In this document: one piece after another, positions 1 to 55,344 of the stretch | Layout of the letters: every line of letters begins with the position of its first letter | Position numbering within the stretch: the stretch's first letter is position 1 | Origin: Candidatus Saccharimonadales bacterium | GTDB taxonomy: Bacteria > Patescibacteriota > Saccharimonadia > Saccharimonadales > EFPC-124 | Reading direction: 5' to 3' | Assembly: GCA_035457485.1 (NCBI GenBank) | Contig: DATIBO010000006.1 | Span: forward strand, 370,659 to 434,658 | DNA: 64,000 nt | Program-made: the position numbers and the translations under genes | Notes under the pieces: model-generated | The model's database searches: none | What the model saw: only the letters and a program-made list of their open reading frames with translations | What the model was told of the DNA's origin: nothing

Positions 1-1015
1 CGACCCAAAATTCAGCCTAGAGCCTGTAGCTGAGCGGCTTAGTGAACTTCTAAAAGAACCTGTTGGTTTTGTGCCCGAATGCGTGGGCGACAAGGTCAAA
101 GTTGCGGTTAAGCACTTAAGGACTGGCGGGGTTTTACTACTCGAAAACTTACGCTTCCATCCTCAAGAAGAACAAAATGATCCGGAGTTTGCCAAAAAAC
201 TATCTACAAGTTGCGGTGCTGATTATTTTGTTCAGGATGGATTTGGAGTAGTCCATCGAGCTCATGCCAGCACAGATGTGATTACTCAATTTTTGCCAAG
301 CGTCGCGGGTTTATTGCTGCAAAAAGAGGTGACCACGATCACGCATGTTGTGCAAAACCCCAAACAGCCTGTTGTTGCTGTGGTCGGTGGAGCAAAAATT
401 GCTGACAAAATTAAGGTTCTTGAAAGGTTTATTCAAATCGCCGACCACATAATTATTGGCGGTGCTATGGCAAACACGTTTTTAAAGTATAAAGGTTTGC
501 CGATTGGGCAGAGTGTTTACGATGACGGTGAAGATGCGTTAATCTCTAAACTATATACCCAAGCTCGTAAAAAAGTCGGCGACAAAGTTGATGAATTTTT
601 AGTTCTACCCACCGATGTTGCGGTGGCAACTGAGATTGGCCCGGCTAAGCGACGCACTACAGTAAGTGTTCATGACGTGACGGAGGATGAATACATTTTG
701 GATATGGGTTCAAAAAGTACCGAAGCCATGTTGGCGATTGTAAAAAATGCCGGCACCGTAATTTGGAGCGGGACCTTAGGTGTGGCTGAATATGAAGCCT
801 TTGCGTATGCTTCGGCAAAATTGGCGCATGCCTTGGCCGTTCAAAAACATAGTACGTTTAGCTTAATCGGCGGTGGCGACACAGTGGACTTTGTTTTAGG
901 CTGGGATAGTCAAAAGGGCGACAGTTTCGGGTTGGTTTCCACTGGGGGAAGCGCTAGTCTTGAGCTGATGGCGGGAGAGACTCTTCCGGGCGTGGCCGCT
1001 CTAATGGATCGCTAA
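1..1015 (+). CDS. pgk: phosphoglycerate kinase, 5'-truncated by the window edge
   Basis: The frame is open from nt 2. It contains LLLENLRFHPQEE and the C-terminal STGGSASLELMAGETLPGVAAL typical of PGK. tpiA follows directly. Confidence 0.92.
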   Translation, partial: DPKFSLEPVAERLSELLKEPVGFVPECVGDKVKVAVKHLRTGGVLLLENLRFHPQEEQNDPEFAKKLSTSCGADYFVQDGFGVVHRAHASTDVITQFLPSVAGLLLQKEVTTITHVVQNPKQPVVAVVGGAKIADKIKVLERFIQIADHIIIGGAMANTFLKYKGLPIGQSVYDDGEDALISKLYTQARKKVGDKVDEFLVLPTDVAVATEIGPAKRRTTVSVHDVTEDEYILDMGSKSTEAMLAIVKNAGTVIWSGTLGVAEYEAFAYASAKLAHALAVQKHSTFSLIGGGDTVDFVLGWDSQKGDSFGLVSTGGSASLELMAGETLPGVAALMDR

Positions 1016-1245
1016 TTTTCATGGCGGCTGCAATGGCACAAAAACCACGAGCGCGACAGACGTAATTTTCTTCTATGCGTTCCAGTTTGCAAAACCGACT
1101 TTCACTTGCGCCCAAGATCTCTGGTGGACAAACTGGCAGTTCTTTTTCTCCGCGACCATCGTATTGTTTCATAAGTTAATTATTAGCGCTTTTTTGTATA
1201 AATCATAGTGCTTGTGCTAAGCTATTAAAAAAGCCATAGGGCATC

Positions 1246-2013
1246 ATGCGCAAGAAACTTATAGTAGCAAACTGGAAAATGAAATTTACAGTTGGGGAAT
1301 CCAGCCTATTTTTGAATAAGCTCCAAGAAAAAGTCGTGGCTAACCGTAATGTCGAAGTTGTGATTTGTCCTAATGTTTTAACTTTGCAATCGCTTTCATT
1401 ACAGATAGATCGACGCAAATTTAAACTTGGGGCGCAGAATTGCTACTACAAGGACGAGGGTGCATTTACTGGTGAAGTTTCTGCCAGTATGCTACGCGGG
1501 ATTGCAAACTATATAATTATTGGTCATTCCGAACGTCGACATATTTTTTGTGAGACCGACAAACTTATTACACAAAAAGTCCAGGCAGTTTTGCGTAGCG
1601 GCCTAAAGCCGATTTTATGCGTTGGCGAAACTAAAAACGAGCGAATCGCAGGCGAAACAGCCCACACCTTACACGCTCAGGTCACGGCGGGTTTGGCAAA
1701 CGTTACGTCCGAAGAAATCAAAGATGTGGTAATTGCATATGAACCAGTTTGGGCGATTGGAACCGGTGATTTTGCCAAATCCGAAGACGCCATGACCGCG
1801 GCAAAATATATCAGGCGACAAGTCGAAGGATTGTTTGGTAAAAAAGCGGCCGAAGAAATTCAGATTTTATACGGGGGTAGCGTAGATACAGATAACGCTG
1901 GATCGTACTTGGCGGCCGAAGATGTAGACGGTTTACTGGTGGGCGGAGCGAGCTTAAAGGCTGATGCTTTTGCTACAATAATAGGTAAAGCAAACGAAAT
2001 AGCAACGGCATAA
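1246..2013 (+). CDS. tpiA: triosephosphate isomerase
   Basis: Contains the ANWKMK, IIGHSERR, AYEPVWAIGTG and ILYGGSV motifs. Confidence 0.95.
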   Translation: MRKKLIVANWKMKFTVGESSLFLNKLQEKVVANRNVEVVICPNVLTLQSLSLQIDRRKFKLGAQNCYYKDEGAFTGEVSASMLRGIANYIIIGHSERRHIFCETDKLITQKVQAVLRSGLKPILCVGETKNERIAGETAHTLHAQVTAGLANVTSEEIKDVVIAYEPVWAIGTGDFAKSEDAMTAAKYIRRQVEGLFGKKAAEEIQILYGGSVDTDNAGSYLAAEDVDGLLVGGASLKADAFATIIGKANEIATA

Positions 2014-3074: not shown

Positions 3075-3135
3075 GGTTTTAGCGTTCACTACAATACTGT
3101 GCCACGCAATTTGAACTCTGTATAAAGCTAAAATT

Positions 3136-3164
3136 TTGACACTAAATCAATTTTGTAGTATGGT
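3136..3164 (+). promoter_or_regulatory. sigma70-like promoter of cassette A
   Basis: TTGACA, 17-nt spacer, TATGGT. The 5' UTR carries the hairpin CTGCCA-tatggt-TGGCAG, followed by a GGAGGG SD. Confidence 0.5.
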
Positions 3165-3217
3165 TTTGTCTTAGTCGCTGCCATATGGTTGGCAGTAACT
3201 AGCTTCCGGAGGGAAGA

Positions 3218-3748
3218 ATGACCGCTCAGACGCGAGACTTCGCCGAGATCAGCGACAAGCAGATCTTGGAGGAGGCGATGGAGTCCGGCGAGACGATCTT
3301 CAACGATCTGTTCTGGCGGGACCTTCTCAACAGCGAGACGGTGTGCATCACGGTCGCGCTGGTCGACGCCCTCGGCAACTACACCTGGCTGGGCAGTCAG
3401 GTCTTCGGCGACAAGGTTCAGTGGGACGAGAGCAAGTTCAACAGCTCGCCCGACGACAACTTCTGGGCCTACGCCGGCGGCAAGGCGATCACCTCGGCGG
3501 TGCTTCGCAAGAACACCCGCGAGGCTCGCGAAGCCGGCGACCCGCTCCCCGTGGGTGGCCTCGACTGGAACGGCGGCGTCTTCCGCGCAGTGACGTTCGG
3601 TTCGGGTGACCAGAGCCGGCACGTCGCCGTCGCGGTCGGAACGTGTGGTGTTCAGGGTGACTTCGACGAGGTCATCTCGGCGGCGGTCGTCAACACCTTC
3701 TGCGCCGTGTGGTTGCAGCGCGAAGCTGCCCGCGCCGCGCAGAAGTAA
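3218..3748 (+). CDS. G+C-rich cassette A: hypothetical cytoplasmic protein (176 aa)
   Basis: GC3-rich codons and a GGAGGG SD 4 nt before the ATG. Off-frame ORFs on both strands are typical of high-GC DNA. I recognise no confident family; there is only a faint GlcG/DUF336-like pattern (VAVAVGTCGVQGDFDEVIS). Confidence 0.75.
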   Translation: MTAQTRDFAEISDKQILEEAMESGETIFNDLFWRDLLNSETVCITVALVDALGNYTWLGSQVFGDKVQWDESKFNSSPDDNFWAYAGGKAITSAVLRKNTREAREAGDPLPVGGLDWNGGVFRAVTFGSGDQSRHVAVAVGTCGVQGDFDEVISAAVVNTFCAVWLQREAARAAQK

Positions 3749-3757
3749 CGCCCGCAA

Positions 3758-3803
3758 GAAGCCCGCAAGAGGTAAACTCTTTGCACCGCTTCTTGCGGGC
3801 TTC
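3758..3803 (+). terminator. GC-rich hairpin 3' of cassette A
   Basis: GAAGCCCGCAAGA pairs with TCTTGCGGGCTTC (13 bp) and there is no U-tract. It is homologous to the hairpin after cassette B. Confidence 0.6.
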
Positions 3804-3814
3804 GTACATTGAGC

Positions 3815-4348
3815 TTATTTTAATTTTTTAACTAGTTCATCAAGTTTGATAGTAGCGTCGTCAGATGTATTGATCGTGATCAATTTATCTAAACCGATCG
3901 GGATGTGCTGGGCGGAACGTGAGTAATCGTCGATACGGTCAAAATCTCGGTGGCCAGGATGCCGCTCGCCAGTCTTGACTCGCTCAATAAACCGCTGTCT
4001 CGAAAGCTCGTATGGTACCTTGCAATAAATCTCGATAATTTCTACATCTGGGAAGTCTTCGACAATTTTTTTAATCTGTTTACCGGCAAAGTCTGGGTTA
4101 AAAGCGTTTTCAATAATTAAAGAACGTCCGCTTTTTAAAATCCCTCTGGCAAGTTCGATTAAAAAATCAGCCGACAAAGAACCAAGCAATTTTGACCACT
4201 CCACATCATCAATCCCAAGTCTGTCAAATAAAAACTCTTTTATGTCATCCTTTGAAATTAGCATAATCTTTGTTTGTGCAGACAAGTTTCGCGATAACGT
4301 CGTTTTACCAGATCCTGGGGCACCGTTGACAATAATTAGTTTGTTCAT
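3815..4348 (-). CDS. P-loop NTPase / small-molecule kinase-like (AAA_33-type) protein
   Basis: Walker A motif GAPGSGKTT near the N-terminus. Composition is native and low in GC. The gene is sandwiched between cassettes A and B. Confidence 0.8.
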   Translation of the reverse strand: MNKLIIVNGAPGSGKTTLSRNLSAQTKIMLISKDDIKEFLFDRLGIDDVEWSKLLGSLSADFLIELARGILKSGRSLIIENAFNPDFAGKQIKKIVEDFPDVEIIEIYCKVPYELSRQRFIERVKTGERHPGHRDFDRIDDYSRSAQHIPIGLDKLITINTSDDATIKLDELVKKLK

Positions 4349-4451
4349 GCGGTTATTATATCTAATTTCGATAGACTTTAGACAATTTGCAATTTTCGTT
4401 AAAAAAGTTTATATTATGGTCACTCTTACGCAAGAGACAACGGAGGTGTTT

Positions 4452-5000
4452 GTGACCGCCACGACTCCCACTCAACAAAGGTGGAAGCTTGACAAGGAGC
4501 TGCGCGAGGGCCCGATGTTCGTTCTCGTCGACGGCGAACCGTTCAAGGTTCTGAGTTCGCTCCGGAACAGCAAGCTGTATGTCGGGACCTTCATCGACGA
4601 ATCCTATGCAGGTTTGCTGATGAAGTTCAATCCCGAGACCAAGGCCGTGACTACGATCGATGCTAACGCCGGGCTTCAGGCACTCTACATGAACAGGCTG
4701 GCGATCCCTGACTTCGTATCGCACTTGGTCAGGGCGGTTCAATGTAGTGGCCGAGACTACCGAACAGTCAGCGATGAGATCGCGCGGTCCCTATACGGGG
4801 CTGGCTTAACGGCCGAGATGACGGTTGCTCAGTGGTCGGCGTGTGCGCCGGAGAACGCCATCGATCACATCCGGGCTGACATCGACTGGATCTGGGTCCA
4901 GGCTCGGGCACACAGTCGATGGATGACGCTCCAGATCACACTGGCCGTACTCGCCAAGCTACAGCTCGATAAGCGAAGGCCGGCCGGGGACGGCCAGTAG
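4452..5000 (+). CDS. G+C-rich cassette B: hypothetical protein (~182 aa)
   Basis: GTG start 5 nt after a GGAGG SD. The longer track ORF (4242) runs antisense through the kinase gene and across a TTGCAA-17-TATATT promoter, so I trimmed it. Codons are GC3-rich. Confidence 0.7.
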   Translation: MTATTPTQQRWKLDKELREGPMFVLVDGEPFKVLSSLRNSKLYVGTFIDESYAGLLMKFNPETKAVTTIDANAGLQALYMNRLAIPDFVSHLVRAVQCSGRDYRTVSDEIARSLYGAGLTAEMTVAQWSACAPENAIDHIRADIDWIWVQARAHSRWMTLQITLAVLAKLQLDKRRPAGDGQ

Positions 5001-5011
5001 TACCTGCCCGC

Positions 5012-5061
5012 GAAAAGCCCGCAAGGAGCAATCCTCGCGCCGTGCTTCTCGCGGGCTTTTC
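5012..5061 (+). terminator. GC-rich hairpin 3' of cassette B
   Basis: GAAAAGCCCGC pairs with GCGGGCTTTTC. The region aligns with the cassette A 3' module. Confidence 0.6.
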
Positions 5062-5116
5062 ATATGTTGTCATAAACACCTAGCGGCAAAACGCTAACAC
5101 TTGTTACAATAAAGCA

Positions 5117-7273
5117 GTGAGCGAAGCCGAACTACTCTTAAAAGACCTGAATCCAGAACAACGAAAAGCTGCTGAGACAACCGAGGGGCCAGTACTTATT
5201 TTAGCCGGCGCAGGATCTGGCAAAACTAAAACCTTAACACACAGAATCGCTTATTTAATTGCCAGCGGTAAGGCTAAGCCAAGCCAGATTTTAGCCGTAA
5301 CTTTTACCAACAAAGCCGCTAAAGAAATGCGCGAACGATTGGCGCACTTACTTGGCGCCAACGGAAATGATCGTGCGTTCATGCCATTTATGGGGACGTT
5401 TCACAGTATTTGTGTACGACTTTTACGTTTTGACGGCGAACATATTCAGATTCCAAAAAATTACGTAATTTTTGATGAGGGTGACCGTCAGAGCGCAGTA
5501 AAGCAAGCACTTAAAAAGCTTGGGGTAAGCGAAAAACAATACAGCTCAAATTCGGTCGCCGGTTTAATCAGTAGTGCCAAGAACGAACTTTTAAATCCGG
5601 CCGATTACGCAGCCCAAGCCCGTTTACCTCTACAAAAGGTTGCCGCTGACGCTTACGCGATTTATGAGCGAGTGAAAAAAGAAGCCTCTGCACTGGACTT
5701 TGATGATCTAATAGGTGAAACTGTAAAACTTTTAAAAACAGTGCCAGAGGTAAAAGATAAGTGGCGAAAACAATTCAAGTATGTTTTGATCGACGAGTAT
5801 CAAGATACAAACGCAGCGCAGTACAACTTGGTAAAAATGTTAGTAAACGATCAACAAAACCTCTGTGTAGTGGGCGATGACTGGCAAAGTATTTATAGCT
5901 GGCGCGGCGCTGATTTTAAAAATATTTTAAATTTTGAACATGACTACCCTAAGAGTTTAGTCGTAAAACTCGAAGAAAACTATCGCAGCACCAAAAGTAT
6001 TTTGGACGCGGCGCATAACGTAATTACAAAAAATACTCAACGCTCAAATAAGGCGTTATGGACAAAGGCAGGCGAGGGCAGCCCTGTTAGTATTCAGTAT
6101 GTAAGCAACGAGCATTATGAAGGCGAGGTTGTTGTCAGTAAGATTAAAAGTGCTGTTGCTATGCGTGCCAGGCGCTTTAAAGATTTTGCAGTTTTATACC
6201 GAACCAATGCGCAATCACGCAGCATAGAAGAAAGTTTTATACGTTACGGAATCCCATATAGGATTGTGGGTGGTGTGCGATTCTATGACCGCAAAGAAAT
6301 AAAAGACATAATCGCGTTTATGCGATTAATTTACCAGCCAGCTGACCGCGCTAGTTTTTTGAGAATTGTAAACGTGCCTTCGCGCGGATTAGGCAATATT
6401 TCGGTTCAACGATTTTTAGATTGGAAATCTGCCCGACTTGTTGACGACAGAACCAACATAATCAGTGCGCTTGAAGCCTGCGAAACGGCGCTTGGGATAA
6501 CTGCTAAAGCTAAAAAATCGTTTGCTGATTTGGGCGAAATGCTGGCCCGATTAAAAGAAGCATCCGAAACTATGAGCTTGCCTGATTTTATTGAAAAGAT
6601 TATTCAACGTGTCGACTATATGAACTACCTCGACGACGGCACGCCTCAGGCGGAAGATCGCCAAGAAAACGTTAAAGAGTTAATCTCGGTAGCTCGCGAG
6701 TATGCAGATTTGGGATTGGCTGGGTTTTTAGAAGAAGTTGCCTTAATTAGTGACCTTGATGTGATTCAGGCCGACCAGGATGCGGTTTTGCTCATGACTA
6801 TGCATGCTGCAAAAGGATTGGAATTTCCGTGCGTGTTTATGGTGGGCATGGAAGAAAGCATTTTCCCAAGCGCTCGGTCGCTTTATGACCAGGATGACCT
6901 GGAGGAAGAGCGCAGGCTTTGCTATGTAGGAATGACTCGGGCGCGAGAGGAACTTGTTTTGACCTGCGCAAGTAGCCGCATGATCTATGGATCGACTCAG
7001 CATAATCCACCGTCACGCTTTTTGGCCGACATTGACGGCAAGGCTGAAACGCATCAAGCAACAGCCTTCGGGTTTAATGGTCCGACCGATTATGGTAATG
7101 AGCCTCGGTATGTGCCTGACGATCTAGATTTGGCGGTTGGTGATAAAGTTAAGCACCGCGTTTTTGGTCAGGGGATAATAACCGAGATTGACGGTTCTAA
7201 TGTGGCGGTTAGCTTTGCCGGTCGCGGTATGAAACGTTTAAATGTTGAGTTCGCGCCACTAGAGAAACTTTGA
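5117..7273 (+). CDS. pcrA: ATP-dependent DNA helicase PcrA/UvrD (SF1)
   Basis: Contains AGAGSGKT, TFTNKAA, DEYQDTN, TMHAAKGLEF and VGMTRAREEL. Confidence 0.95.
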   Translation: MSEAELLLKDLNPEQRKAAETTEGPVLILAGAGSGKTKTLTHRIAYLIASGKAKPSQILAVTFTNKAAKEMRERLAHLLGANGNDRAFMPFMGTFHSICVRLLRFDGEHIQIPKNYVIFDEGDRQSAVKQALKKLGVSEKQYSSNSVAGLISSAKNELLNPADYAAQARLPLQKVAADAYAIYERVKKEASALDFDDLIGETVKLLKTVPEVKDKWRKQFKYVLIDEYQDTNAAQYNLVKMLVNDQQNLCVVGDDWQSIYSWRGADFKNILNFEHDYPKSLVVKLEENYRSTKSILDAAHNVITKNTQRSNKALWTKAGEGSPVSIQYVSNEHYEGEVVVSKIKSAVAMRARRFKDFAVLYRTNAQSRSIEESFIRYGIPYRIVGGVRFYDRKEIKDIIAFMRLIYQPADRASFLRIVNVPSRGLGNISVQRFLDWKSARLVDDRTNIISALEACETALGITAKAKKSFADLGEMLARLKEASETMSLPDFIEKIIQRVDYMNYLDDGTPQAEDRQENVKELISVAREYADLGLAGFLEEVALISDLDVIQADQDAVLLMTMHAAKGLEFPCVFMVGMEESIFPSARSLYDQDDLEEERRLCYVGMTRAREELVLTCASSRMIYGSTQHNPPSRFLADIDGKAETHQATAFGFNGPTDYGNEPRYVPDDLDLAVGDKVKHRVFGQGIITEIDGSNVAVSFAGRGMKRLNVEFAPLEKL

Positions 7274-7280
7274 TAATTTT

Positions 7281-7314
7281 GGTGCTCTCTGAGCACCGGC
7301 GCTCCCGACGGGAG
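7281..7314 (-). terminator. tandem hairpins 3' of cassette C, abutting the pcrA stop
   Basis: CTCCC-gtc-GGGAG is followed by GGTGCTC-aga-GAGCACC and then AAAATTA on the minus strand. The same hairpins could also terminate pcrA. Confidence 0.55.
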
Positions 7315-7333
7315 GCTAGTGCTCAGAGTGTGC

Positions 7334-7888
7334 TCAGCTGGAGGCCTTGGTTTTGCGCTTGTGGCTGAAGTAGCCGAAGATCCCTGCGATGGCCAGCCCG
7401 ATCGAGATGATCCAGCAGGCGCTCAGCGCCAGCTTCAGTCGGGTATCGTAGACGTTGTAGTAGATCGTCTGGATGAGGACGCCGATGGCGAGTGTGACGC
7501 AGGCCATCCAGAACTTGGTGGGCCATGTGACGCGCTTGTCGTCGATTGCGGGCCGTCCACTGTTGAACAGCATCATCCCGAACGCCACCATGAGCCATGC
7601 CGCCATCCAGCCGTTCAGACTGTTGGCTTTGGGCAGCATCCTGTCGGTCGCTGCCAGCTGCTGCTCGACCTCGATGAAGTCGATGGCCGCGGAGGCCGTA
7701 CCGCAGATAGGAATAGCGAGCATGAGCGTTACGATGATGTTCGTTGCGGTCGGCGAGACCGGGAGCCAGCTCGCCAGTCTCCAGATGCCGACGGCGACGA
7801 GAATCGCCGCCATCCACTTTCCGGTTGGCGGGTCGTACAAGGCATACGTCACCGGGTCGGTCCCGATACTCGCAATTGCGTTGAACAC
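7334..7888 (-). CDS. G+C-rich cassette C: multi-pass membrane protein (184 aa)
   Basis: GTG start within the GGAGGTAGCTGTG context. It has 4-5 hydrophobic helices and GC3-rich codons. Confidence 0.75.
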   Translation of the reverse strand: MFNAIASIGTDPVTYALYDPPTGKWMAAILVAVGIWRLASWLPVSPTATNIIVTLMLAIPICGTASAAIDFIEVEQQLAATDRMLPKANSLNGWMAAWLMVAFGMMLFNSGRPAIDDKRVTWPTKFWMACVTLAIGVLIQTIYYNVYDTRLKLALSACWIISIGLAIAGIFGYFSHKRKTKASS

Positions 7889-7972
7889 AGCTACCTCCAG
7901 TAGCTAGTCGTTTGACTGGTTGAATTTATACACTATTGTAAGAAAAAAGCAAGATTCAACAGGGGTAATGTA

Positions 7973-8001
7973 TTGACTATTTTATATAAATATGGTATAG
8001 T
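7973..8001 (+). promoter_or_regulatory. sigma70-like promoter of cassette D (divergent from the cassette C promoter)
   Basis: TTGACT, 17-nt spacer, TATAGT. On the other strand, TTGCTT-16-TATAAA (7925-7952) faces cassette C. The spacer between them is AT-rich. Confidence 0.55.
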
Positions 8002-8063
8002 CTCTTTTAGACTTATTTGCAAGCATCTGCTTAGCAAAAAGTTGACGAGGAGAGGAATTTGAC

Positions 8064-8399
8064 ATGAGCTGCATCGCCAACCCCATGTGGGGCGGAGAAG
8101 TCGTGCTCGGCATGCCGAATGGAGCCCTGTGGGCTTTCGCGGTACTGCTGCCGGTCATCGCGGCCGCGCTCGGGCTCGCCTGCCTGATCTTGCACGAGAA
8201 CGGCGACAACGCCGCTATCGTCGGCGTGATCAGCAGCGTCTTCGCGCCCGTCGCGGCCTACTGCACGTTCATGCTCGACACCGAGCTGATCTCGCGCATC
8301 GGCAGCGACCCCACGGCCACCGGGATCGGCATCATCGCCCAGATCGTAGCCATGGGCTTCGGTCTAGTGATGGGCCTGATCGCCACATTCGACAACTGA
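8064..8399 (+). CDS. G+C-rich cassette D: small 3-TM membrane protein (111 aa)
   Basis: The ATG follows a GAGGAGAGG SD. The protein is very Ala/Gly/Ile-rich and hydrophobic, with GC3-rich codons. Confidence 0.75.
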   Translation: MSCIANPMWGGEVVLGMPNGALWAFAVLLPVIAAALGLACLILHENGDNAAIVGVISSVFAPVAAYCTFMLDTELISRIGSDPTATGIGIIAQIVAMGFGLVMGLIATFDN

Positions 8400-8407
8400 C
8401 GGCGCAC

Positions 8408-8444
8408 GGCGCCCTGCTCACCCTACTTGGGGAAGCAGGGCGCC
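8408..8444 (+). terminator. GC-rich hairpin 3' of cassette D
   Basis: GGCGCCCTGC pairs with GCAGGGCGCC. There is no U-tract. Confidence 0.6.
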
Positions 8445-8464
8445 AAAGCCTCAGTCCTCTCCTT

Positions 8465-8522
8465 TAGCTGTCGATATTTTTACTAGTATCCTGATGAGTC
8501 CATATTTAGGACGAAACAGCTA
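8465..8522 (+). ncRNA. type III hammerhead ribozyme motif (HHR-1)
   Basis: The sequence reads UAGCUG-UC | GAUA-loop10-UAUC-CUGAUGA-GUCC-loop7-GGAC-GAAA-CAGCUA. All core nucleotides are present. Helix III is 6 bp plus A15.1:U16.1, helix II is 4 bp and helix I is 4 bp. The cleavage triplet is GUC, with predicted cleavage after C8472. Confidence 0.8.
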
Positions 8523-8527
8523 ACTAC

Positions 8528-8556
8528 TTGAAATTTTACTAATTTTATGGTATAAA
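8528..8556 (+). promoter_or_regulatory. sigma70-like promoter of cassette E
   Basis: TTGAAA, 17-nt spacer, TATAAA, immediately 3' of HHR-1. It is followed by a ~65-nt UTR and a GAGGAGG SD. Confidence 0.5.
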
Positions 8557-8621
8557 TACACAGTTGTTCAGCAAACCAGCTGATACGACAAAACGTACTG
8601 CATTGCCTGAGGAGGCTTGCA

Positions 8622-9245
8622 ATGTCCCTGTTCCGACGCGGCCAGCACTGCTGCTGCCAGCCAGCTTTCGCCACCATCATCGGCTTCGGGAGAATCCCGA
8701 TGACGAACGGTGGCCACAGCCACGACTGCACCTGCACGCACGGTCGCTGCATCGGTCCGGTCCGGATCGTCCACACCGCCGCCAACTGCACCTGCATCGA
8801 CGGCGAGTGCGACAAGACGGACTACGACCGCATCCAGCAGATGATCGACGCCGCCACGGCGCCGCTCACCATCCAGATCACCACGCTCACCAGTCGCCTC
8901 GACGAGGCCGGCCGGCGGATCGAGGACCTGGAGGCGCGGCCCATCGCCGGCATCACCGAGGTCGTGGGCGAGCGTCGCTCGTTCGTTACCCGGTGGACCC
9001 TGGTCGGAGCCATCATCGGCTTCGCTCTGGCGGTCATCGGGGCGCTCAGCGTCCCCGAGGGCATCTACCACCTGCTCGGCAACAAGACCTGGTTCTACAC
9101 CCAGAGCTTCCTGTTCTGGATGGAGATCATCATCGGTACGACGTTCATCGTCGCCGGACTCGGGTTCTTCTTCGGAATGGCCCGCAGTGCCGACGCCGTT
9201 CCGACGTACCGTGAGGTCACCCGCACGGACGGTGGTTCGCTGTGA
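8622..9245 (+). CDS. G+C-rich cassette E1: Cys/His-rich, coiled-coil, C-terminally membrane-anchored protein (207 aa)
   Basis: The N-terminus has CCCQ..HSHDCTCTHGRC..NCTCIDGEC. A heptad-like segment follows, then 2-3 C-terminal TM helices. Confidence 0.75.
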   Translation: MSLFRRGQHCCCQPAFATIIGFGRIPMTNGGHSHDCTCTHGRCIGPVRIVHTAANCTCIDGECDKTDYDRIQQMIDAATAPLTIQITTLTSRLDEAGRRIEDLEARPIAGITEVVGERRSFVTRWTLVGAIIGFALAVIGALSVPEGIYHLLGNKTWFYTQSFLFWMEIIIGTTFIVAGLGFFFGMARSADAVPTYREVTRTDGGSL

Positions 9246-9979
9246 ACCGTCGCCGTGTAGCGCTCGTTGGGTTGCTGGCGATTCCGCTGGCGTGCCTGGC
9301 GTTCGTGCTTTCGAACTCGGTGGTGATGGTCACCGGACCGGCTTCGGTTCCGGTGGCGATCGCGCCGAGTCCCTCTGTCGTCCCGTCCCCGGCCGTAGTG
9401 CCGCCGGACGACTACTGCCTGGTTAAGGCTCCGCCCGAGTATCTGGGCGAGTACACACCAGACAACGACTTCGGCTACCCTGCGGTTACCGATTGGGAGC
9501 GCAAGCACCCCAAGAAGTTCCTGCAGAACCCCGACAGTCTGCCCGACACGCTCACCGACCTGAAGATCCGCTGGTGCGGAGTCGATGGCGAGGGCGTGAG
9601 AGGCGGGGATCCGCTGCTTCAGAACGCACACTTCAGTGTGCCGGACGACAGCGACCCCAACCGCCCCTTCAACGAGGCCAGCTGGCGTGCCACCACGGAC
9701 GCCAACGTGAACCGCGTGAAGTGGGACCAGGCCGAGCTCAAGCTCGCGCCCGCGGGAGACTACTATGTCATGTACATGGTGGAATCCCGCAAGACCGGCA
9801 AGCTGGAAGTGCGAATCAGCCTCCAGTGGAAGCCGGACACCCTGGTGCTTATGCTGCCGATCGCGAGAGCGGACGGCACAGGCACCGAAACGCTGATGTT
9901 GCGACTGGAGTGTGGGTTCCAACCCATGTTCGAGAAGCGCAGCAGCGTCCCCCGGTGGCTGCAGAAGTTCCTGAACTGA
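9242..9979 (+). CDS. G+C-rich cassette E2: secreted protein with an N-terminal signal/TM segment (245 aa)
   Basis: GTG start overlaps the E1 stop (GTGA), suggesting translational coupling. The N-terminus is MNRRRVALVGLLAIPLACLAFVL, followed by a Pro-rich linker. Confidence 0.75.
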   Translation: MNRRRVALVGLLAIPLACLAFVLSNSVVMVTGPASVPVAIAPSPSVVPSPAVVPPDDYCLVKAPPEYLGEYTPDNDFGYPAVTDWERKHPKKFLQNPDSLPDTLTDLKIRWCGVDGEGVRGGDPLLQNAHFSVPDDSDPNRPFNEASWRATTDANVNRVKWDQAELKLAPAGDYYVMYMVESRKTGKLEVRISLQWKPDTLVLMLPIARADGTGTETLMLRLECGFQPMFEKRSSVPRWLQKFLN

Positions 9980-9995
9980 CGCCGCCACCAAGCGC

Positions 9996-10029
9996 GGGCC
10001 GCACCTGGACAAGTTCCCAGGTGCGGCCC
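9996..10029 (+). terminator. GC-rich hairpin 3' of cassette E
   Basis: GGGCCGCACCTGG pairs with CCAGGTGCGGCCC (13 bp perfect). Confidence 0.6.
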
Positions 10030-10094
10030 CGCCGCAACACCTTTGCCTCAGTAGGGCATTTTTTTATATCAAAAAATTGTGTCATAATTGAAGT

Positions 10095-12016: not shown

Positions 12017-12442
12017 ATGACTTATAAATACGATGGTTTTAATTACGTTATTCGCTTAAATAAAGATGAGCGTTTGAGTGAAGCTCTTAAGGAGTTTTTG
12101 CAAAAAACCGAGGTTGATGGCGCTTGGATTTTAGGTATTGGTGGTGCTCAAGAGGCGACATTAGGCTTTTACAGTTTAAAAACTAAGCAGTACAACTGGC
12201 GAACATTTAGTGACTTAATGGAAGTCACTAGCTTACAGGGTAATATAGCAGTTGACGAGGATGGCGAACCGGTTTTTCATATGCACGGGACTTTCGCTGG
12301 CGAAGACTTCAATAGCTTTGGTGGCCATGTTAAAGATTTGATTGTGGGCGGGACTCTGGAAATTTTTGTTCATCGAACCGATGACATGCCTCTGAGCCGC
12401 AAGCACGATACTGAGGTTGGCTTGGATTTATTGGACTTGTAA
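12017..12442 (+). CDS. PPC (DUF296) domain protein
   Basis: The pattern MEVTSLQGNIAVDEDGEPVFHMHGTFAGEDFNSFGGHV matches my recollection of the PPC/DUF296 fold. Confidence 0.6.
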   Translation: MTYKYDGFNYVIRLNKDERLSEALKEFLQKTEVDGAWILGIGGAQEATLGFYSLKTKQYNWRTFSDLMEVTSLQGNIAVDEDGEPVFHMHGTFAGEDFNSFGGHVKDLIVGGTLEIFVHRTDDMPLSRKHDTEVGLDLLDL

Positions 12443-13035
12443 TGAATGTAGTTAATCTTGATCAGGCTGCCCAGCTGTTAAAAAGCGGTAAAATTGGAGT
12501 TATCCCAACCGATACTGTCTATGGACTAGTTGCTCTAGCGGCAAACGAACTGGCGGTTGCGCGAATTTACAAGGTAAAAAATCGTGTTAACAAACCCGGC
12601 CCCACAATTGCAGCTAGTGTTGATCAGTTGCGCGACCTAGGTTTGCTTGAGTCTGATCTTATAAAAGCTGCTAAATTTTGGCCCAATCCAATTAGTATTG
12701 TTTTAAAGCCTGGTGCAAACTTGGCTTATTTAAGTCAGGGCTTGCCAGATTTACCGTTTAGGGTAGTCGCCAATACAAAAACTAGCGAATTTTTGCAAAA
12801 AACTGGTGCTCTAGCCACTACAAGTGCCAATGCGCCAGGCGAACCAGCCGCCGAAAATTTGCAACAAGCAGTAGACTATTTTGGTGATGCAGTTGATTTT
12901 TATGTAGATGGCGGTGAAATTAGTAACGCTTTGCCGTCGACAATCATTGGATTTGATGGTGAAAATGTTAAAATTTATCGAGAAGGCGCTGTAACTAAAC
13001 AAAAAATAGAAAGTTTAAAAAATGCCAACTCCTAA
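12442..13035 (+). CDS. tsaC: L-threonylcarbamoyladenylate synthase (YrdC/Sua5 family)
   Basis: Contains GVIPTDTVYGLVA, TSAN and PSTII motifs. The start overlaps the upstream stop (ATGA-type coupling). Confidence 0.85.
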   Translation: MNVVNLDQAAQLLKSGKIGVIPTDTVYGLVALAANELAVARIYKVKNRVNKPGPTIAASVDQLRDLGLLESDLIKAAKFWPNPISIVLKPGANLAYLSQGLPDLPFRVVANTKTSEFLQKTGALATTSANAPGEPAAENLQQAVDYFGDAVDFYVDGGEISNALPSTIIGFDGENVKIYREGAVTKQKIESLKNANS

Positions 13036-13792
13036 AAAATCCCTGGGCCAACACTGGCTTTTCGACAGTAAGAGTCTAGGCGCAATTTGCGACGCAGCTG
13101 AGATTACTCCAGATGACACAATTTTAGAAATTGGCCCGGGTCTGGGGCCGCTTACAATAGAACTTACTCAGCGTGCAAAAAACGTTATAGCCGTGGAATT
13201 TGATGAACAATTAGCTCGCGAGTTACCGTCTCGGGTGCCGGCTGCTAACTTAAAAGTGATTCACGAAGATATTTTAAAGTTCAATTTAAATAATTTGCCT
13301 CAAAACTACAAGGTTGTGGCGAATGTGCCTTATTACATCACTAGCAGTCTAGTTCGATATTTATTAGAATCTAAAAATCCGCCAAAAACTACTGTAATGT
13401 TAATTCAAAAAGAAGTGGCAGAGCGAATCTGTGCTAAACCCGGAGACATGAGTATTTTAGCGATTAGCGCTCAGCTTTATGCTGAAACTGATTTGGGGGT
13501 TTTGGTCACGGCCGATAAATTTGATCCACCGCCAAAAGTGGATTCTCAGGTGGTAATTTTGAATAAACGCGAAAAACCACTGTTTAAAGATCTGGATGTT
13601 AAAAAGTTTTTTAGAATCGTTCGTGCTGGTTTTGGCGAAAAACGAAAAACGCTCCGCAACAGTTTAAGCGGGGGGTTGCAGCTTGATAAAACCAAAGTAG
13701 AAACGTTGTTAGATAAGTCTGGGATTGCGCAAACGACGCGAGCACAGCAACTTAGTCTAGAAGATTGGCATAAACTCTACATTGGGTTGTAG
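13022..13792 (+). CDS. rsmA: 16S rRNA (adenine1518/1519-N6)-dimethyltransferase
   Basis: Contains KKSLGQHWL, EIGPGLGPLT and VANVPYYITS. Confidence 0.95.
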   Translation: MPTPKKSLGQHWLFDSKSLGAICDAAEITPDDTILEIGPGLGPLTIELTQRAKNVIAVEFDEQLARELPSRVPAANLKVIHEDILKFNLNNLPQNYKVVANVPYYITSSLVRYLLESKNPPKTTVMLIQKEVAERICAKPGDMSILAISAQLYAETDLGVLVTADKFDPPPKVDSQVVILNKREKPLFKDLDVKKFFRIVRAGFGEKRKTLRNSLSGGLQLDKTKVETLLDKSGIAQTTRAQQLSLEDWHKLYIGL

Positions 13793-13796
13793 TAGG

Positions 13797-13831
13797 TTCG
13801 CCGCCCAGAGTCGAAAGCCCTGGGCGGCGAA
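13797..13831 (-). terminator. GC-rich hairpin 3' of cassette F, 5 nt from the rsmA stop
   Basis: TTCGCCGCCCAG pairs with CTGGGCGGCGAA (12 bp perfect). Confidence 0.6.
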
Positions 13832-13842
13832 CGGTGGTCGTT

Positions 13843-14106
13843 TTAGCTGCTTACATCTTCTCCCTGTTCATCCTGCCTGGCATCATTGCCAGAGATATCG
13901 GTCTCACCCTCGTCATCGGCAACTCCGGCCATCAGGGCTCGAATATCACCAACTCGGAAACGGTGGTGTCCACCCGGAGTTCTTTTTGAGCTAAGTCTTC
14001 CTGCCTTTACCCATCTGGGCACGGTTTTCGGATCAACCCGGAATAATGCTGCAACCTCCCCTGAGGTGAGTAGCTGGTCGTCTGGATCGATCAGTTCGCG
14101 TGGCAC
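13843..14106 (-). CDS. G+C-rich cassette F: BldC-like MerR/excisionase-family HTH DNA-binding protein (87 aa)
   Basis: LLTSGEVAALFRVDPKTVPRWVKAGRLSSKRTPGGHHRFRVGDIRALMAG closely follows the actinobacterial BldC/Xis-type wHTH pattern as I recall it. It has an acidic C-terminal tail and a GTG start after an AAGGAG SD. Confidence 0.85.
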   Translation of the reverse strand: MPRELIDPDDQLLTSGEVAALFRVDPKTVPRWVKAGRLSSKRTPGGHHRFRVGDIRALMAGVADDEGETDISGNDARQDEQGEDVSS

Positions 14107-14134
14107 ATGGCTCCTTACGTCGTTTGTGAAATAT

Positions 14135-14163
14135 ATAATAAAATAAAATTATGAGTTATGCAA
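14135..14163 (-). promoter_or_regulatory. sigma70-like promoter of cassette F
   Basis: On the minus strand: TTGCAT, 17-nt spacer, TATTAT, in an AT-rich spacer. Confidence 0.45.
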
Positions 14164-14287
14164 TATGTTCTTGTTAGGATCATGTTTTTGAAGTAATATT
14201 GGTTCATCATGTTATCGATGCAAATTATGGTTCGGTTTTAGCAGGCGTACAAAACTTGTATCTTATTAATTTTTTTGAGAACCAATT

Positions 14288-15934
14288 ATGATTGCATCTG
14301 TAAAAATAACCGAAAAATCTTTTGGGGCAACCCAACTTTATAAAAACTTAAACTTTAGTATTCAAAAAGGCGAAAAGCTGGCGATTATTGGCCGCAACGG
14401 AGTGGGCAAGTCTACGCTTTTTAATATAATGGACGGCAAAGATGGCGATTTTGTTGGAGATTTAATTTACAAAAAAGGCATAAAAATTGCCACGACTCGC
14501 CAAGAGCATCACGATGTGGATGATTTAACGGCGGTGGCATATATTTTGCAGGAATTGCCAGAATACTCGCGCCTAAAACATATAATCGAAACTTATCCGG
14601 CGCACATGGGCGACAATGAAGCGAAAATCACTAAATTTACTGAGGCGCTTGAACGTTTTGGCGAACTCGGTTTTTATCACGTAGAAGATGAAGTACGCAC
14701 AACCTTGGCGGATTACCAGATTGGCGATAAAGCCGACATGCCACTTAAAACTCTTTCGGGCGGTCAGCGCCGTTTTGTGGAGTTGGTAAAACTTACGCAC
14801 GCACGCGCCGATCTGTTATTGATCGACGAGCCAACCAACCACATGGACTACATTGCAAAAGAGCGTTTTATAAAATGGTTTAAAAACGCGCCTCAAGCCG
14901 TGGTTGTAATTTCGCACGATCGCGATATTTTGCAAACTGTGGATCAGATCATCGAGTTAACAGACGGCCTATCGTTAAAATTTGTAGGTAACTATGACGC
15001 TTATTTGCGTCAAAATGCGACCACAACGGTTAGCCAGCTTAACGATTACGAAACCGCTCTTAGAACAATCGAGAATTTAAACAAGCAAATTCAATCGGTT
15101 CGTGCCAAAAAAGCTAGCACAAGTAAAACGCCAAACCCATTCATACCGTTAGAGCGACGTTTGGTTAAGGAACGTGACGAACTAAAAGTTAATTTGCAAA
15201 AGCCTAATTTTTGGGTTGATCAAGAATCGCTTGCAGGCATGCAGGATAAAGTTAGCGAGAGGTACCATAAATATAAAGCTAAAAATATTTCGCTTAACAC
15301 AAAATCAATTTTGGCGAGCAAAGCAAATTATTTGGTCAGCGCTCTTGATCTTTCGCTGGGTTACAGCGAACCGCTTTTTACGGATGTAAACTTTACGATT
15401 TCGCCTGGTGATCGATTAGAGATTAGAGGACGCAATGGTGCCGGTAAATCCACGATTATTAATGCAATTATGGAGTTTGCGGCTGGCAATATCCCTGAAA
15501 CTCTTAAAGCCGGTGAAATAAAAGTTGATAAAAAATGTAAGATCGGCCGCTATGAACAAGAAATTAGCGGGAAGTTGCTTGATTTAAATTTGGTTCAGGC
15601 GATCGAACAGATTTATCGCGACTTTGGATTGAGTATAACTGATCAAGAGATCATGCGACTAATGAGTAACTATTTGTTCGATCCGCAGCTCGATAAAGAA
15701 AAAGAAGTTTCTAAACTCTCGGGCGGTCAAAAAGCGCGGCTGCAGCTGATTAGGTTGTTTGCAAATAACCCAGATTTGCTAATTTTGGACGAGCCGACCA
15801 ACCATTTAGATTTACCGAGTATCGAGGAATTAGAAAACGCCCTGTTAAAATTCGGTGGCGCGATCTTGTATGTCTCGCACGATAGTTATTTTACAAAAAA
15901 ATTGGCTGGGCAAGTTGTGAAAATCGGCAGGTAA
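14288..15934 (+). CDS. ABC-F family ATPase (two ABC domains, no TM domain)
   Basis: Walker A motifs GRNGVGKST and GRNGAGKST. ABC signature motifs LSGGQRR and LSGGQKAR. Confidence 0.9.
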   Translation: MIASVKITEKSFGATQLYKNLNFSIQKGEKLAIIGRNGVGKSTLFNIMDGKDGDFVGDLIYKKGIKIATTRQEHHDVDDLTAVAYILQELPEYSRLKHIIETYPAHMGDNEAKITKFTEALERFGELGFYHVEDEVRTTLADYQIGDKADMPLKTLSGGQRRFVELVKLTHARADLLLIDEPTNHMDYIAKERFIKWFKNAPQAVVVISHDRDILQTVDQIIELTDGLSLKFVGNYDAYLRQNATTTVSQLNDYETALRTIENLNKQIQSVRAKKASTSKTPNPFIPLERRLVKERDELKVNLQKPNFWVDQESLAGMQDKVSERYHKYKAKNISLNTKSILASKANYLVSALDLSLGYSEPLFTDVNFTISPGDRLEIRGRNGAGKSTIINAIMEFAAGNIPETLKAGEIKVDKKCKIGRYEQEISGKLLDLNLVQAIEQIYRDFGLSITDQEIMRLMSNYLFDPQLDKEKEVSKLSGGQKARLQLIRLFANNPDLLILDEPTNHLDLPSIEELENALLKFGGAILYVSHDSYFTKKLAGQVVKIGR

Positions 15935-15984
15935 ACCTAATGCTCACTATTAGTTATATCCTAATTATGATATAATGAGTGTAA

Positions 15985-16032
15985 ATGACACACAGTTTTG
16001 CTCAATTTTCGATGATGTACATGATGCGCTAG
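15985..16032 (+). promoter_or_regulatory. candidate Met-rich leader peptide ORF upstream of metG
   Basis: My own translation is MTHSFAQFSMMYMMR (5 Met in 15 codons). The ATG lies 9 nt after TATAAT (15971-15976). The stop overlaps the GC palindrome GCGCTAGCGCGC, which is followed by a T6 run (16040-16047). Confidence 0.3.
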
Positions 16033-16091
16033 CGCGCGAATGATTTTTTATACCCCAAATTTTGTTATCATCTTAAATAAGGACTATCACT

Positions 16092-17567
16092 GTGAATAAA
16101 TTCTATATTACAACCGCAATTCCATATGTTAACGCCGCGCCACACATTGGGCATGGACTTGATTTTACTTTGGCGGATGTTCTAGCCAGATTCCATCGTC
16201 AGCTTGGTGCAGACGTGTTTTTTGAAGTAGGTGTGGATGAACATGGCACGAAAATTGCTCAAAAAGCGCATGAATTCGGCAAAACCCCACAGCAGTATGT
16301 GGACGAAATCGTTCCGCTTTGGCAGGATTTTTATAAAAAATTAAACATAACACCGACCGGGTTTATTCGTACAACCAGCCCCGAACACGAGAAAGCTTCT
16401 CAGTTAATTTGGACGCAACTGGCTAAGTATATTTATAGAGGTAAGTACGAAGGCTGGTACTGCGTTGGCTGTGAAAGTTTTGTAACAGATCAGCAAGCGG
16501 CCGAGAACAACGGTGTTTGCCCAGATCACCAAAAGCCATACGAGCGACTAAGCGAGGAAAACTATTATTTTAAACTCAGTGCATTTGGCGAGCAACTTCG
16601 CCAAGGTATAGTTGCCGGTGAAGTTAAAATTGTACCAAGCTTTAGAAAGCACGAAATTTTAAACTTAATCGAAAAAGGTCTACAAGATATTAGTATTAGT
16701 CGTCCAAAAACGCAGCTAGCCTGGGGAATACCAGTGCCGGGTGATGACACCCAGGTAATGTACGTATGGTTCGAGGCCGTACTGAATTATCTGTCGGTTT
16801 TAGGTTACCCGAATGCTGACAACTTTAAGAAGTTCTGGCCAGCTGATGTTTGGGTGGGCGGAAAGGACATCTTGCGGTTCCATGGTGCGATTTTGCCTGC
16901 AATGCTAATTGGGCTGGATTTACCATTGCCAAAAACCTTGTTGGTACACGGTCACGTTTTAGCAGGTAATACTAAAATGAGCAAAACTTTAGGCAACGTA
17001 GTAAGTCCGATCGAGGTAATCGATACTTACGGGGCTGACGCTTTTAGGTATTTCTTTTTGCGCCATATCCCAACAGTTGACGATGGCGATTTTACGTGGG
17101 AAAAATTTGAAAACGCCTACAATAACGAGCTAGGTAACGAACTTGGTAACTTGGTGCAACGCGTTGCAAGTATGATCAACAGATATCAAAATGGTGTGAT
17201 TGGAGCATTACCGCCGTCCAAGCACGACACCAAGGCATTTTATGATGAGGTGAACGAGTTCAGATTTGATCGAGCGTTAGACGCAATCTGGGTAATGGTT
17301 CGCAATTTGAACATCTACTTAGAGGAAGTTAAGCCTTGGCAACTCGCAAAAAACCCTGAACAGGCGGATCATCTTCAAGAAGTTTTGGCATACTCTGCTG
17401 CTAGTTTGATTCAGATTGCAGATTTGTTACTACCGTTTTTGCCAACGACCGCCGAGGCAATTAAGCATGTGTTCGAAGGCGGGCAGGTTACTCCATATCA
17501 AGGTGTTTTATTTCCTAAGATTTACAAACATACAGTTGATCCGCGAGCTCAACAACCGGCAAAATAA
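16092..17567 (+). CDS. metG: methionine--tRNA ligase
   Basis: HIGH-type motif PHIGH and the KMSKT loop. The Cys cluster is CVGCESF..CPDH. Confidence 0.95.
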   Translation: MNKFYITTAIPYVNAAPHIGHGLDFTLADVLARFHRQLGADVFFEVGVDEHGTKIAQKAHEFGKTPQQYVDEIVPLWQDFYKKLNITPTGFIRTTSPEHEKASQLIWTQLAKYIYRGKYEGWYCVGCESFVTDQQAAENNGVCPDHQKPYERLSEENYYFKLSAFGEQLRQGIVAGEVKIVPSFRKHEILNLIEKGLQDISISRPKTQLAWGIPVPGDDTQVMYVWFEAVLNYLSVLGYPNADNFKKFWPADVWVGGKDILRFHGAILPAMLIGLDLPLPKTLLVHGHVLAGNTKMSKTLGNVVSPIEVIDTYGADAFRYFFLRHIPTVDDGDFTWEKFENAYNNELGNELGNLVQRVASMINRYQNGVIGALPPSKHDTKAFYDEVNEFRFDRALDAIWVMVRNLNIYLEEVKPWQLAKNPEQADHLQEVLAYSAASLIQIADLLLPFLPTTAEAIKHVFEGGQVTPYQGVLFPKIYKHTVDPRAQQPAK

Positions 17568-20322: not shown

Positions 20323-20775
20323 ATGGAAGGTAGAATCCCCGACGGCCCCGAGGCCGTACTCGAGGGTGTGATCGCGGGTCGTAGAGCTGCAGGTCGCAAG
20401 TCCAAGATGACCGGCACGGGATGTCTCATCACTGTCGTCATCGTGGGCTTTCTGGTGGCCTGCTGCTGTGGCGCACCGAACTTCCCACTGTTCTTCAGTG
20501 GGACGGCCGTCGTCACGGTCTGCGACAAGGACCCAAAGCAGGACCAGTACCGGGTCAGTGTCAGTGACGGGGTCACCCGCGAGGTCTACGTGGTAGAGGA
20601 CATGCACCTCCCGATCGTGGCCTGGCGCACTGACGCCGCCGACCTATATTACCGCCTCGACAAGGGCAAGGTGTACGAGATCACGTACCGCGGTATCCGC
20701 TGGACGCCGGGATCGCGGTTCCGCAACATCGAGACCGCAACCCACCTGCCCAACGCAGTCCCCAAGGGCTGCTGA
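20323..20775 (+). CDS. G+C-rich cassette G: putative lipoprotein or membrane-anchored protein (150 aa, or 122 aa from the internal ATG)
   Basis: The hydrophobic segment CLITVVIVGFLVAC ends in a lipobox-like LVAC. Codons are GC3-rich. The start is uncertain (ATG 20323 or ATG 20407). Confidence 0.7.
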   Translation: MEGRIPDGPEAVLEGVIAGRRAAGRKSKMTGTGCLITVVIVGFLVACCCGAPNFPLFFSGTAVVTVCDKDPKQDQYRVSVSDGVTREVYVVEDMHLPIVAWRTDAADLYYRLDKGKVYEITYRGIRWTPGSRFRNIETATHLPNAVPKGC

Positions 20776-20823: not shown

Positions 20824-20833
20824 CCTTGGACGT

Positions 20834-20881
20834 GCTTACATGAATGTAGTTCATGCTGATGAGTCCAAAAGGACGAAAAGC
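20834..20881 (+). ncRNA. type III hammerhead ribozyme motif (HHR-2)
   Basis: The sequence reads GCU-UA | CAUGAA-loop5-UUCAUG-CUGAUGA-GUCC-AAAA-GGAC-GAAA-AGC. The core is complete. Helix I is 6 bp, helix II is 4 bp, and helix III is only 3 bp plus A15.1:U16.1. Predicted cleavage is after A20838. Confidence 0.6.
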
Positions 20882-20906
20882 TAAAAAGTATGAGAAAATA
20901 GAAGTA

Positions 20907-44119: not shown

Positions 44120-44189
44120 AGCGGTTAACCCTTCAGACGGCGCAATTTGCGCAGATGGGTGGTGCATGCCGCAGGTAGCGGCTCGAACT

Positions 44190-54913: not shown

Positions 54914-54933
54914 AACAGTTCTTGTGCAAACCA

Positions 54934-55306: not shown

Positions 55307-55344
55307 TCAACCATCTCCAATCTCAGCCAAGCGCTAATCGTTGG

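Follow-up and report, generated by a model that had tools for sequence, protein, structure and literature searches.

The gap upstream of pcrA in a metagenome-assembled genome (MAG) of Candidatus Saccharimonadales contains two small GC-rich genes, designated A and B, each of which is followed by a copy of a structured element of about 60 nucleotides (nt) that is referred to here as the module. Both copies lie within the 64-kb stretch of DNA that was analysed (the window). The locus neighbours are pgk, tpiA, a membrane-protein gene, a kinase gene and pcrA, and the same locus was found in an independent Logan assembly. The features are listed below in window coordinates, where GC3 denotes the GC content at third codon positions, UTR an untranslated region, and L022 to L028 loci from relatives.

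3136 to 3195, plus strand: promoter-like site TTGACA-17-TATGGT (3136-3164) and 5' UTR hairpin (3178-3195) of gene A, both conserved in L023.
3218 to 3748, plus strand: gene A, 176 amino acids, GC3 0.88, with a predicted divergent DUF336/GlcG/HbpS-like fold.
3749 to 3810, plus strand: module copy A, with a 13-bp outer stem (3750-3762 / 3788-3800), an inner hairpin (3765-3784), the second GCCCGC box (3761-3771) and the tail CTTCGTACAT.
3815 to 4348, minus strand: P-loop kinase (AAA_33 / zeta-toxin-like), low in GC and convergent with gene A.
4387 to 4451, plus strand: promoter-like site of gene B (4387-4415) and GGAGG-containing 5' UTR, with an orthologous counterpart upstream of L027:3606.
4452 to 5000, plus strand: gene B, a 182-amino-acid orphan, GC3 0.74, with a GTG start and a GGAGG ribosome-binding site.
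5005 to 5066, plus strand: module copy B, with an outer stem (5006-5018 / 5044-5056) containing one A.C mismatch, an inner hairpin (about 5021-5038), the second box (5017-5027) and the U-rich tail TTTTCATAT (5057-5065).
5063 to 5119, plus strand: native pcrA promoter region, with a -10 box TACAAT (5105-5110) and a GTG start at 5117, conserved in L022 and L027.

Copy A begins 1 nt past the TAA stop codon of its open reading frame (ORF) and is the sole hairpin in the 66-nt gap between the convergent gene A and kinase, while copy B begins 5 nt past a TAG stop codon, and the pcrA promoter region begins right past its tail. Local alignment of the two copies gave a score of 51, compared with 17.7 +/- 2.6 (maximum 30) for shuffled sequences, with 42 of 53 core positions identical, and in a repeat search they formed a 53-nt pair that is the sole repeat family touching the region. 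The signature GCCCGCRA...GCGGGCTT was found at two sites in the 64 kb, namely copies A and B, where shuffles predict 0.01. Folding energies are -34.5 kcal/mol for copy A and -31 kcal/mol for copy B (z = -6.6 and -4.4 relative to shuffles). A covariance model built from the pair scored copy A at 85 bits and copy B at 81.9 bits and detected no further copy in the window, the next best match reaching 18 bits, and no Rfam family matched the module at either gathering or permissive thresholds. Comparison of the two proteins by BLASTP gave E = 0.93, on which the possibility that A and B are diverged paralogues was rejected. The first-pass annotation, made from the sequence alone, had described two homologous structured 3' modules on unrelated ORFs, and the alignment, the folds and the protein comparison confirm that description. 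Similarity seemingly reaching about 30 nt into both ORFs was discounted, because the stretch in A encodes the family-conserved C-terminus and the stretch in B aligns with a hairpin remnant of L027; the roughly 12 nt preceding the stop codon of A (CAGAAGTAA vs CAGTAGTAC) may be part of the copied piece.

In the most stable fold, the first GCCCGC box pairs with the 3' arm and encloses the small inner hairpin, and in an alternative conformer that 3' arm is taken by the second box. The duplication of the GCCCGC(A/G)A box reported at first pass is real, but the stem drawn there, with the second box on the 3' arm, corresponds to the alternative conformer rather than to the most stable one. The compensatory stem differences reported with it hold: RNAalifold, applied to A, B and a third copy from the related locus L023, gave 21 pairs, 7 of which are still paired after changes on both sides. 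For example, an A-U pair of the module is replaced by G-C in copy B, and at the third position of the inner stem copy A has an A-U pair, L023 a G-C pair and copy B an A.C apposition.

The third copy, CCCGCAAGAGAAGCCCGCGAGAGAAATCTCGCACCGCTTCTCTTGCGGGCTTTTC, lies directly past the stop codon of the gene A orthologue at the same locus in L023, where it was detected at 39.9 bits (E = 2e-9) by the model built from the window pair alone. The window and L023 modules are identical at 48 of 51 aligned bases, compared with an identity of 68% both in the A ORF and in its promoter plus 5' UTR, and of 65-75% in tpiA, pcrA and gene X of the conserved order given below, and a 2-nt insertion in the L023 5' arm is matched by a 2-nt insertion in its 3' arm. 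Because the module is better conserved than the flanking genes and carries compensatory changes, it is a selected, functional structure travelling with gene A. The idea that the L023 module is a recombinant with an A-type body and a B-type tail was not retained, since the A tail CTTCGTAC also stands behind an HbpS-like cassette of L024 and the tail types look like variants of one sequence. Two models, R1 and a refined R2, were used to scan about 184 kb of Saccharimonadales sequence containing about 45 GC-rich ORF ends; R2 scored copy A at 75.5 bits and copy B at 75.3 bits and retrieved only the three copies, with the next best match at 20 bits.

These comparisons bear on whether independent terminators could simply have converged on a common strong stem (GCCCGC...GCGGGC). 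The same stem words do occur in unrelated DNA: in another, unrelated organism the GCCCGCAAGAA/TTCTTGCGGGC stem belongs to an ordinary terminator (L017/L018), and similar box-plus-stem arrangements exist in viral contigs. However, the similarity between A and B is co-linear through both boxes, the inner hairpin, an identical 18-nt spacing and the tail, its score lies 13 standard deviations above shuffles, and a model of the first two copies sufficed to find the third. We therefore regard convergence as very improbable.

Gene A appears to be the native owner of the module. It belongs to an unannotated family of about 15 members, with 14 distant relatives among 1.84 billion representative proteins and no sequence match in Pfam or the PDB, and the family motifs GK..T, W.GGV and ASGVQG.FD are kept. 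Its AlphaFold2 model (predicted local distance difference test score, pLDDT, 90; predicted template modelling score 0.87) best matches the DUF336 proteins ORFY (2a2l), EfgA (6bws) and PduO-C (5cx7) in the PDB, each with probability 1.0. The orthologue in L023 is syntenic with 46% amino acid identity (E = 2e-58). The pair uses identical codons at 59% of identical amino acids, compared with 47-49% for pcrA and tpiA, and still has a GC3 of 0.83-0.88 with synonymous sites saturated. All relatives of gene A with examined context are located behind AT-rich promoters in Saccharimonadales-type contigs. As the module and the A orthologue co-occur at the same locus in L023, native ownership by gene A is the best explanation of its distribution. 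Pfam HbpS-like (DUF336) genes are also present in the corresponding hot spot of L024, and the hairpin after one of them (L024:8488-8991) has arms and a tail that resemble module A around a simple UUCG loop. This suggests, as a lead, that the module is an old terminator of the gene A lineage whose inner part arose through duplication of the 5' arm.

Gene B, by contrast, seems to have acquired its copy secondarily. It had zero matches in a word-indexed search of 5.8 billion proteins, and its structure prediction was uninformative (pLDDT 43). Its orthologue in L027 (39% amino acid identity, E = 1.5e-33) shares the promoter and the ribosome-binding site with it, as well as the pcrA promoter region further downstream (TATGTTGTCAT..ACACCTAGC..TACAAT), but is followed by a hairpin without relation to the module, GTGCCCGGGGCC-TAAAA-CCCCGGGCAC. 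The final eight codons of window B (CGA AGG CCG GCC GGG GAC GGC CAG) align with the stop codon of the L027 gene and with the 5' arm of this hairpin, downstream of which the module stands in for the remainder up to the shared TATGTTGTCAT, and the roughly 12 nt preceding module B are similar to the last bases of gene A (CAGAAGTAAC vs CAGTAGTACC). Since the L027 hairpin is unrelated and window B reads through into its 5' arm, the simplest reading is that a piece of about 75 nt from the 3' end of gene A took the place of the distal half of the B terminator, probably by local ectopic recombination. The direction of copying, from A to B, is suggested by one outgroup.

Taken together, we hypothesize with moderate confidence that the module is a Rho-independent terminator that doubles as the protective 3' stem-loop of gene A, and that it was copied once onto a neighbouring gene. 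An RNA-stability signal, as proposed in the first-pass annotation, comes close to this explanation of a terminator combined with a 3' stabiliser, and the localisation signal proposed beside it is weighed below as a separate rival. The hairpin has a strength of -31 to -38 kcal/mol across copies and U-rich tails past the stem (UUUUCAUAU, UUUUCAAUUU); on the sense strand such a tail is present in B (TTTTCATATGTT; UUUUCAUAUGUU) and L023 (CTTTTCAATTTC; CUUUUCAAUUUC), and the antisense tails are not U-rich, with the partial exception of copy A. The module is located 0-5 nt past the stop codon, with the -10 box of pcrA 40-50 nt further downstream in B and L023, and some native genes of the window likewise end in GC-rich terminator hairpins. 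It shares with intrinsic terminators a GC-rich stem-loop immediately past the stop codon at the end of a promoter-to-terminator unit, the sense U-rich tail (B and L023) and an A-rich stretch ahead of the second arm, and copy A resembles bidirectional terminators in lying between convergent genes. It differs from them in being longer and two-level, with an outer stem of 13-14 bp around the inner hairpin, in having a tandemly duplicated 5' arm that allows two mutually exclusive stems, and in the weak U-tract of copy A, and its activity is a predicted one.

In this hypothesis, gene A would be a strongly promoted small gene whose hot spot, variable in content, is bounded by a conserved membrane-protein gene and by pcrA. 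On leaving the ORF, RNA polymerase would transcribe the GC-rich outer stem around the inner hairpin and then the U-rich tail, at which the transcript would be released, and such release would keep read-through out of the pcrA promoter. Copy A, which separates two convergent genes, could terminate in both directions. A ribosome terminating on the stop codon would cover the first arm, leaving the second arm and the same 3' arm to form a hairpin of 12-17 bp. When the 10-14 nt past the stop codon were blocked in folding, an alternative hairpin of -19 to -31 kcal/mol persisted in all three copies, with pairing that reaches into the U-tract in B and L023. It is thus plausible that the duplicated arm keeps the terminator working whether or not the ORF is being translated.

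Several points weigh against this reading. Termination activity and ribosome-proofing are roles that we infer for the module, and the U-tract of copy A is poor (TTCGTACATT; TTCGTACATTGA). The counts of G.U and A.C appositions favour neither strand, and the minus strand folds as well or better, so that a role of the hairpin at the DNA level is conceivable. The A, B and L023 copies are about equidistant from one another (42-46 of 53), and the timing as well as the direction of the A-to-B copying would rest mainly on the comparison with L027. Further, the DNA examined amounts to about 68 kb of an 889-kb genome.

The variability of the locus raises the alternative that the module is a recombination substrate that moves cassettes, either as a dedicated site or as a direct repeat of about 60 nt, with the kinase and gene B inserted or deletable between the copies. 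The gene order PK-PGK-TIM-X-[gap]-PcrA-[gap]-NUDIX is kept in relatives with 78-85% PcrA identity, among which a rough tree places L022 nearest to the window, followed by L023 and then L027, and the content of the gaps varies. The X-PcrA gap contains the following.

L022: a GC-rich remnant and a kinase pseudogene.
L023: the gene A orthologue.
L024: two Pfam HbpS-like genes and another ORF.
L025: empty.
L026: empty.
L027: the gene B orthologue.
L028: one gene of 203 amino acids.

The closest relative, L022, is without gene A, gene B and the module at this locus and has at the same position an internally deleted P-loop kinase pseudogene (750-960, minus strand). Three hot spots, PK/PGK, X/PcrA and PcrA/NUDIX (window 1015-1246, 3075-5116 and 7274-10094), are empty in L025 and filled with differing GC-rich genes in all other relatives (L022-L028).

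Recombination would account for the arrangement of the copies as direct repeats around exactly the kinase and B segment that is absent from L023 (A-module-pcrA), for the half-replacement of B's own hairpin by the module, and for a hot spot whose content is different in every relative and is absent in L025. However, the module is present at 3 of the about 45 cassette 3' ends in the related sequence scanned, the others having unrelated hairpins; the copies are about 80% identical, which is poor for RecA-dependent exchange; and the strong sequence conservation together with the sense-strand U-tract fits an RNA role. Like integron attC sites, the module is an imperfect palindrome about 60 nt long that lies at the 3' end of small, variable genes unrelated to one another, and the hot spot occupied by these genes is array-like. 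By contrast with attC, it is without R''/R' core sites: a regular-expression search found no GTTRRRY in the A, B and L023 copies and their flanks, and one chance RYYYAAC overlaps the L023 stop codon. There is also no IntI or attI beside the locus, the cassettes have their own sigma-70-like promoters, and nearly every cassette has a different hairpin, the module being inherited with one gene family. No integrase or transposase was recognised among the ORFs tested, and none is near the locus. It also differs from a miniature inverted-repeat transposable element or insertion sequence end in that the flanks of A and B share nothing outside it and in that no transposase was found among the ORFs scanned. 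We consider recombination as the role of the module unlikely overall: a dedicated capture site, as suggested at first pass, is unlikely, and a passive recombination substrate is possible. It had also been asked at first pass whether copies always sit at cassette 3' ends; all three copies found do, but most cassette ends are without one.

Another RNA-level role, such as a protein-binding, processing, localisation or export signal on a subset of GC-rich transcripts, would explain why the sequence itself, beyond the pairing, is highly conserved and why the duplicated arm and inner hairpin are retained in all three copies. It would also suit the surroundings, in which neighbouring cassettes bear 5' UTR hairpins as well as hammerhead ribozymes directly past their 3' hairpins and the short motif GARCTTAT stands behind several cassette hairpins. 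Such a signal is nevertheless quite unlikely in our judgement, as the module matches no Rfam family and occurs on two gene families only, all of its features are those of terminators, and the proposed binding partner is purely hypothetical.

The composition of the locus points to a further rival, raised at first pass, namely a repeat of the repetitive extragenic palindromic (REP) type from a GC-rich, actinobacterial donor genome that was brought in with captured cassettes. The ORFs, with GC3 of 0.74-0.88, are actinobacterium-like in a genome of 43% GC, and the module sits inside a GC-rich segment. However, no true copy was found by exact pattern, which diverged copies would escape, in 185,579 species genomes (GTDB), JGI metagenomes or IMG/VR. 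The matches in these viral, genome and metagenome scans were unrelated terminators, coding sequence or an unrelated alphaproteobacterial repeat; the latter, GGCGGGCGTGGCG.AACGAAGCGGGCGAAGCC..GCCCGCGAGAAGCCCGCCGACCCCCC, occurs twice in the genome of an alphaproteobacterial MAG, OY282459.1 (L013 4606-4658 and L014 5802-5852). Further, the relatives of gene A that were examined are all in Saccharimonadales-type contexts with AT-rich promoters, and two genomes keep gene A in synteny together with its promoter, UTR and module, with synonymous sites saturated. We therefore consider a donor-genome repeat extremely improbable, the module being inherited with gene A within Saccharimonadales. Freshly captured actinobacterial cassettes, which the first-pass annotation had assumed, are likewise doubtful, given the syntenic orthologue of gene A with saturated synonymous sites and GC3 above 0.8. 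The module is similar to REP elements and bacterial interspersed mosaic elements (BIMEs) in being a conserved palindrome reused downstream of unrelated genes, but no multi-copy family was detected with exact patterns in the public collections searched. The mycobacterial TRIT motif is reportedly a conserved, repeated terminator motif; the module differs from REP/BIME and TRIT in having two copies in about 68 kb and three in about 184 kb of related sequence.

The GC-rich genes form a class of their own in this genome. Native genes have 40-48% GC and a GC3 of 0.29-0.44, whereas about a dozen small window ORFs have 58-66% GC, with a GC3 of 0.74-0.91 in confident frames. The GC-rich orphan ORFs are located as follows.

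Window, beside the locus: 3218-3748 (gene A), 4452-5000 (gene B), 7334-7888, 8064-8399 and 8622-9979.
Window, elsewhere: 20323-20775, 43682-44167, 56430-57098, 57218-57697 and about 58009-58455.
L020: 2913-3407 and 3533-4036.

In Pfam, no match to any of the GC-rich window ORFs exceeded the curated threshold. The ORFs that were examined all combine a sigma-70-like promoter rich in AT with a strong Shine-Dalgarno sequence and, 1-25 nt past the stop codon, a GC-rich hairpin of their own, and several have a 5' UTR hairpin. Gene F of the window has a syntenic orthologue in L023 (41% amino acid identity) in which the high GC3 is kept and synonymous sites look saturated. The GC-rich composition seems to have been maintained and not to stem from a recent transfer out of Actinobacteria, because orthologues keep their GC3 despite codon divergence and the relatives of gene A are found in Saccharimonadales-type contigs.

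Several further elements accompany these genes. Type III hammerhead motifs at window 8465-8522 and 20831-20884, both on the plus strand, lie directly past the 3' hairpins of 8064-8399 and 20323-20775 and scored 47.3 and 31.5 bits with Rfam Hammerhead_3 (gathering score 48.5); a positional orthologue in L023 (7245-7297) scored 44.4 bits and has the core CCGAUGAG instead of CUGAUGAG. The octamer GA[AG]CTTAT was observed 1-8 nt past the 3' hairpin at 6 of 42 GC-rich ORFs and at none of the 79 native ones, and a longer form, ACATTGARCTTAT, is common to window gene A and two L006 cassettes. Its sites are as follows.

Window: 3811-3818.
L020, minus strand: 3482 and 2862.
L006: 4905, 5587 and 10315.
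L027: about 4171-4178.

The octamer was rejected as a DNA-uptake sequence, as it is not over-represented in the window. In L024, six GC-rich genes of 195-220 amino acids stand in a row (12303-16616), with a near-identical TTGACATTA(T/C)T promoter ahead of four of the six and an own hairpin after all but the first, which resembles an array of paralogues. In L023, the genes called on GC-rich segments (6229-6765, 7343-8056 and 8053-8751) cannot be relied on; the orthologue of window gene F was matched on the plus strand at 8065-8688 of L023, where the record has a gene on the minus strand. A GC-rich segment at window 54914-55340 adjoins the 3' end of tRNA-Leu (54828-54913), has no convincing ORF or Pfam match, and may be the remnant of a tRNA-integrated element.

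A broader alternative is that the module belongs to an expression architecture dedicated to a class of resident Saccharimonadales genes. In it, a consensus promoter and a 5' hairpin would be combined with a strong Shine-Dalgarno sequence, an ORF with actinobacterium-like codons (GC3 0.8-0.9), a long 3' hairpin rich in GC and, in some cases, a hammerhead ribozyme, and selection would keep the composition of the genes host-like. In its boldest version, this architecture would work in an actinobacterial host, with transcripts or genes reaching the GC-rich host through the same cell-cell conduit that serves host RNA import, and the 3' module would act as a terminator and stabiliser compatible with the host. 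It is reported that Patescibacteria import host RNA and that their codon usage complements that of GC-rich hosts (preprints 10.64898/2026.06.21.733656 and 10.64898/2026.09.16.751625), which makes a resident gene class with host-like codons notable. We found nothing specific in the literature on GC-rich gene islands or hammerheads in Saccharibacteria. We regard this alternative as a long shot.

The module provides a well-documented case of a terminator conserved along with its gene and transplanted onto an unrelated neighbour, and its conserved duplicated arm suggests a way to sustain termination with a ribosome on the stop codon. The result removes the main argument for an integron-like capture system at this locus, and the module is a useful marker for reconstructing the rearrangement of variable hot spots in Saccharibacteria. 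The module itself is of modest interest, and the surrounding gene class, with its nearby hammerhead ribozymes, is more interesting, the real oddity being that small, fast-evolving orphan genes keep host-like GC-rich codons over the long term in AT-rich, reduced genomes.

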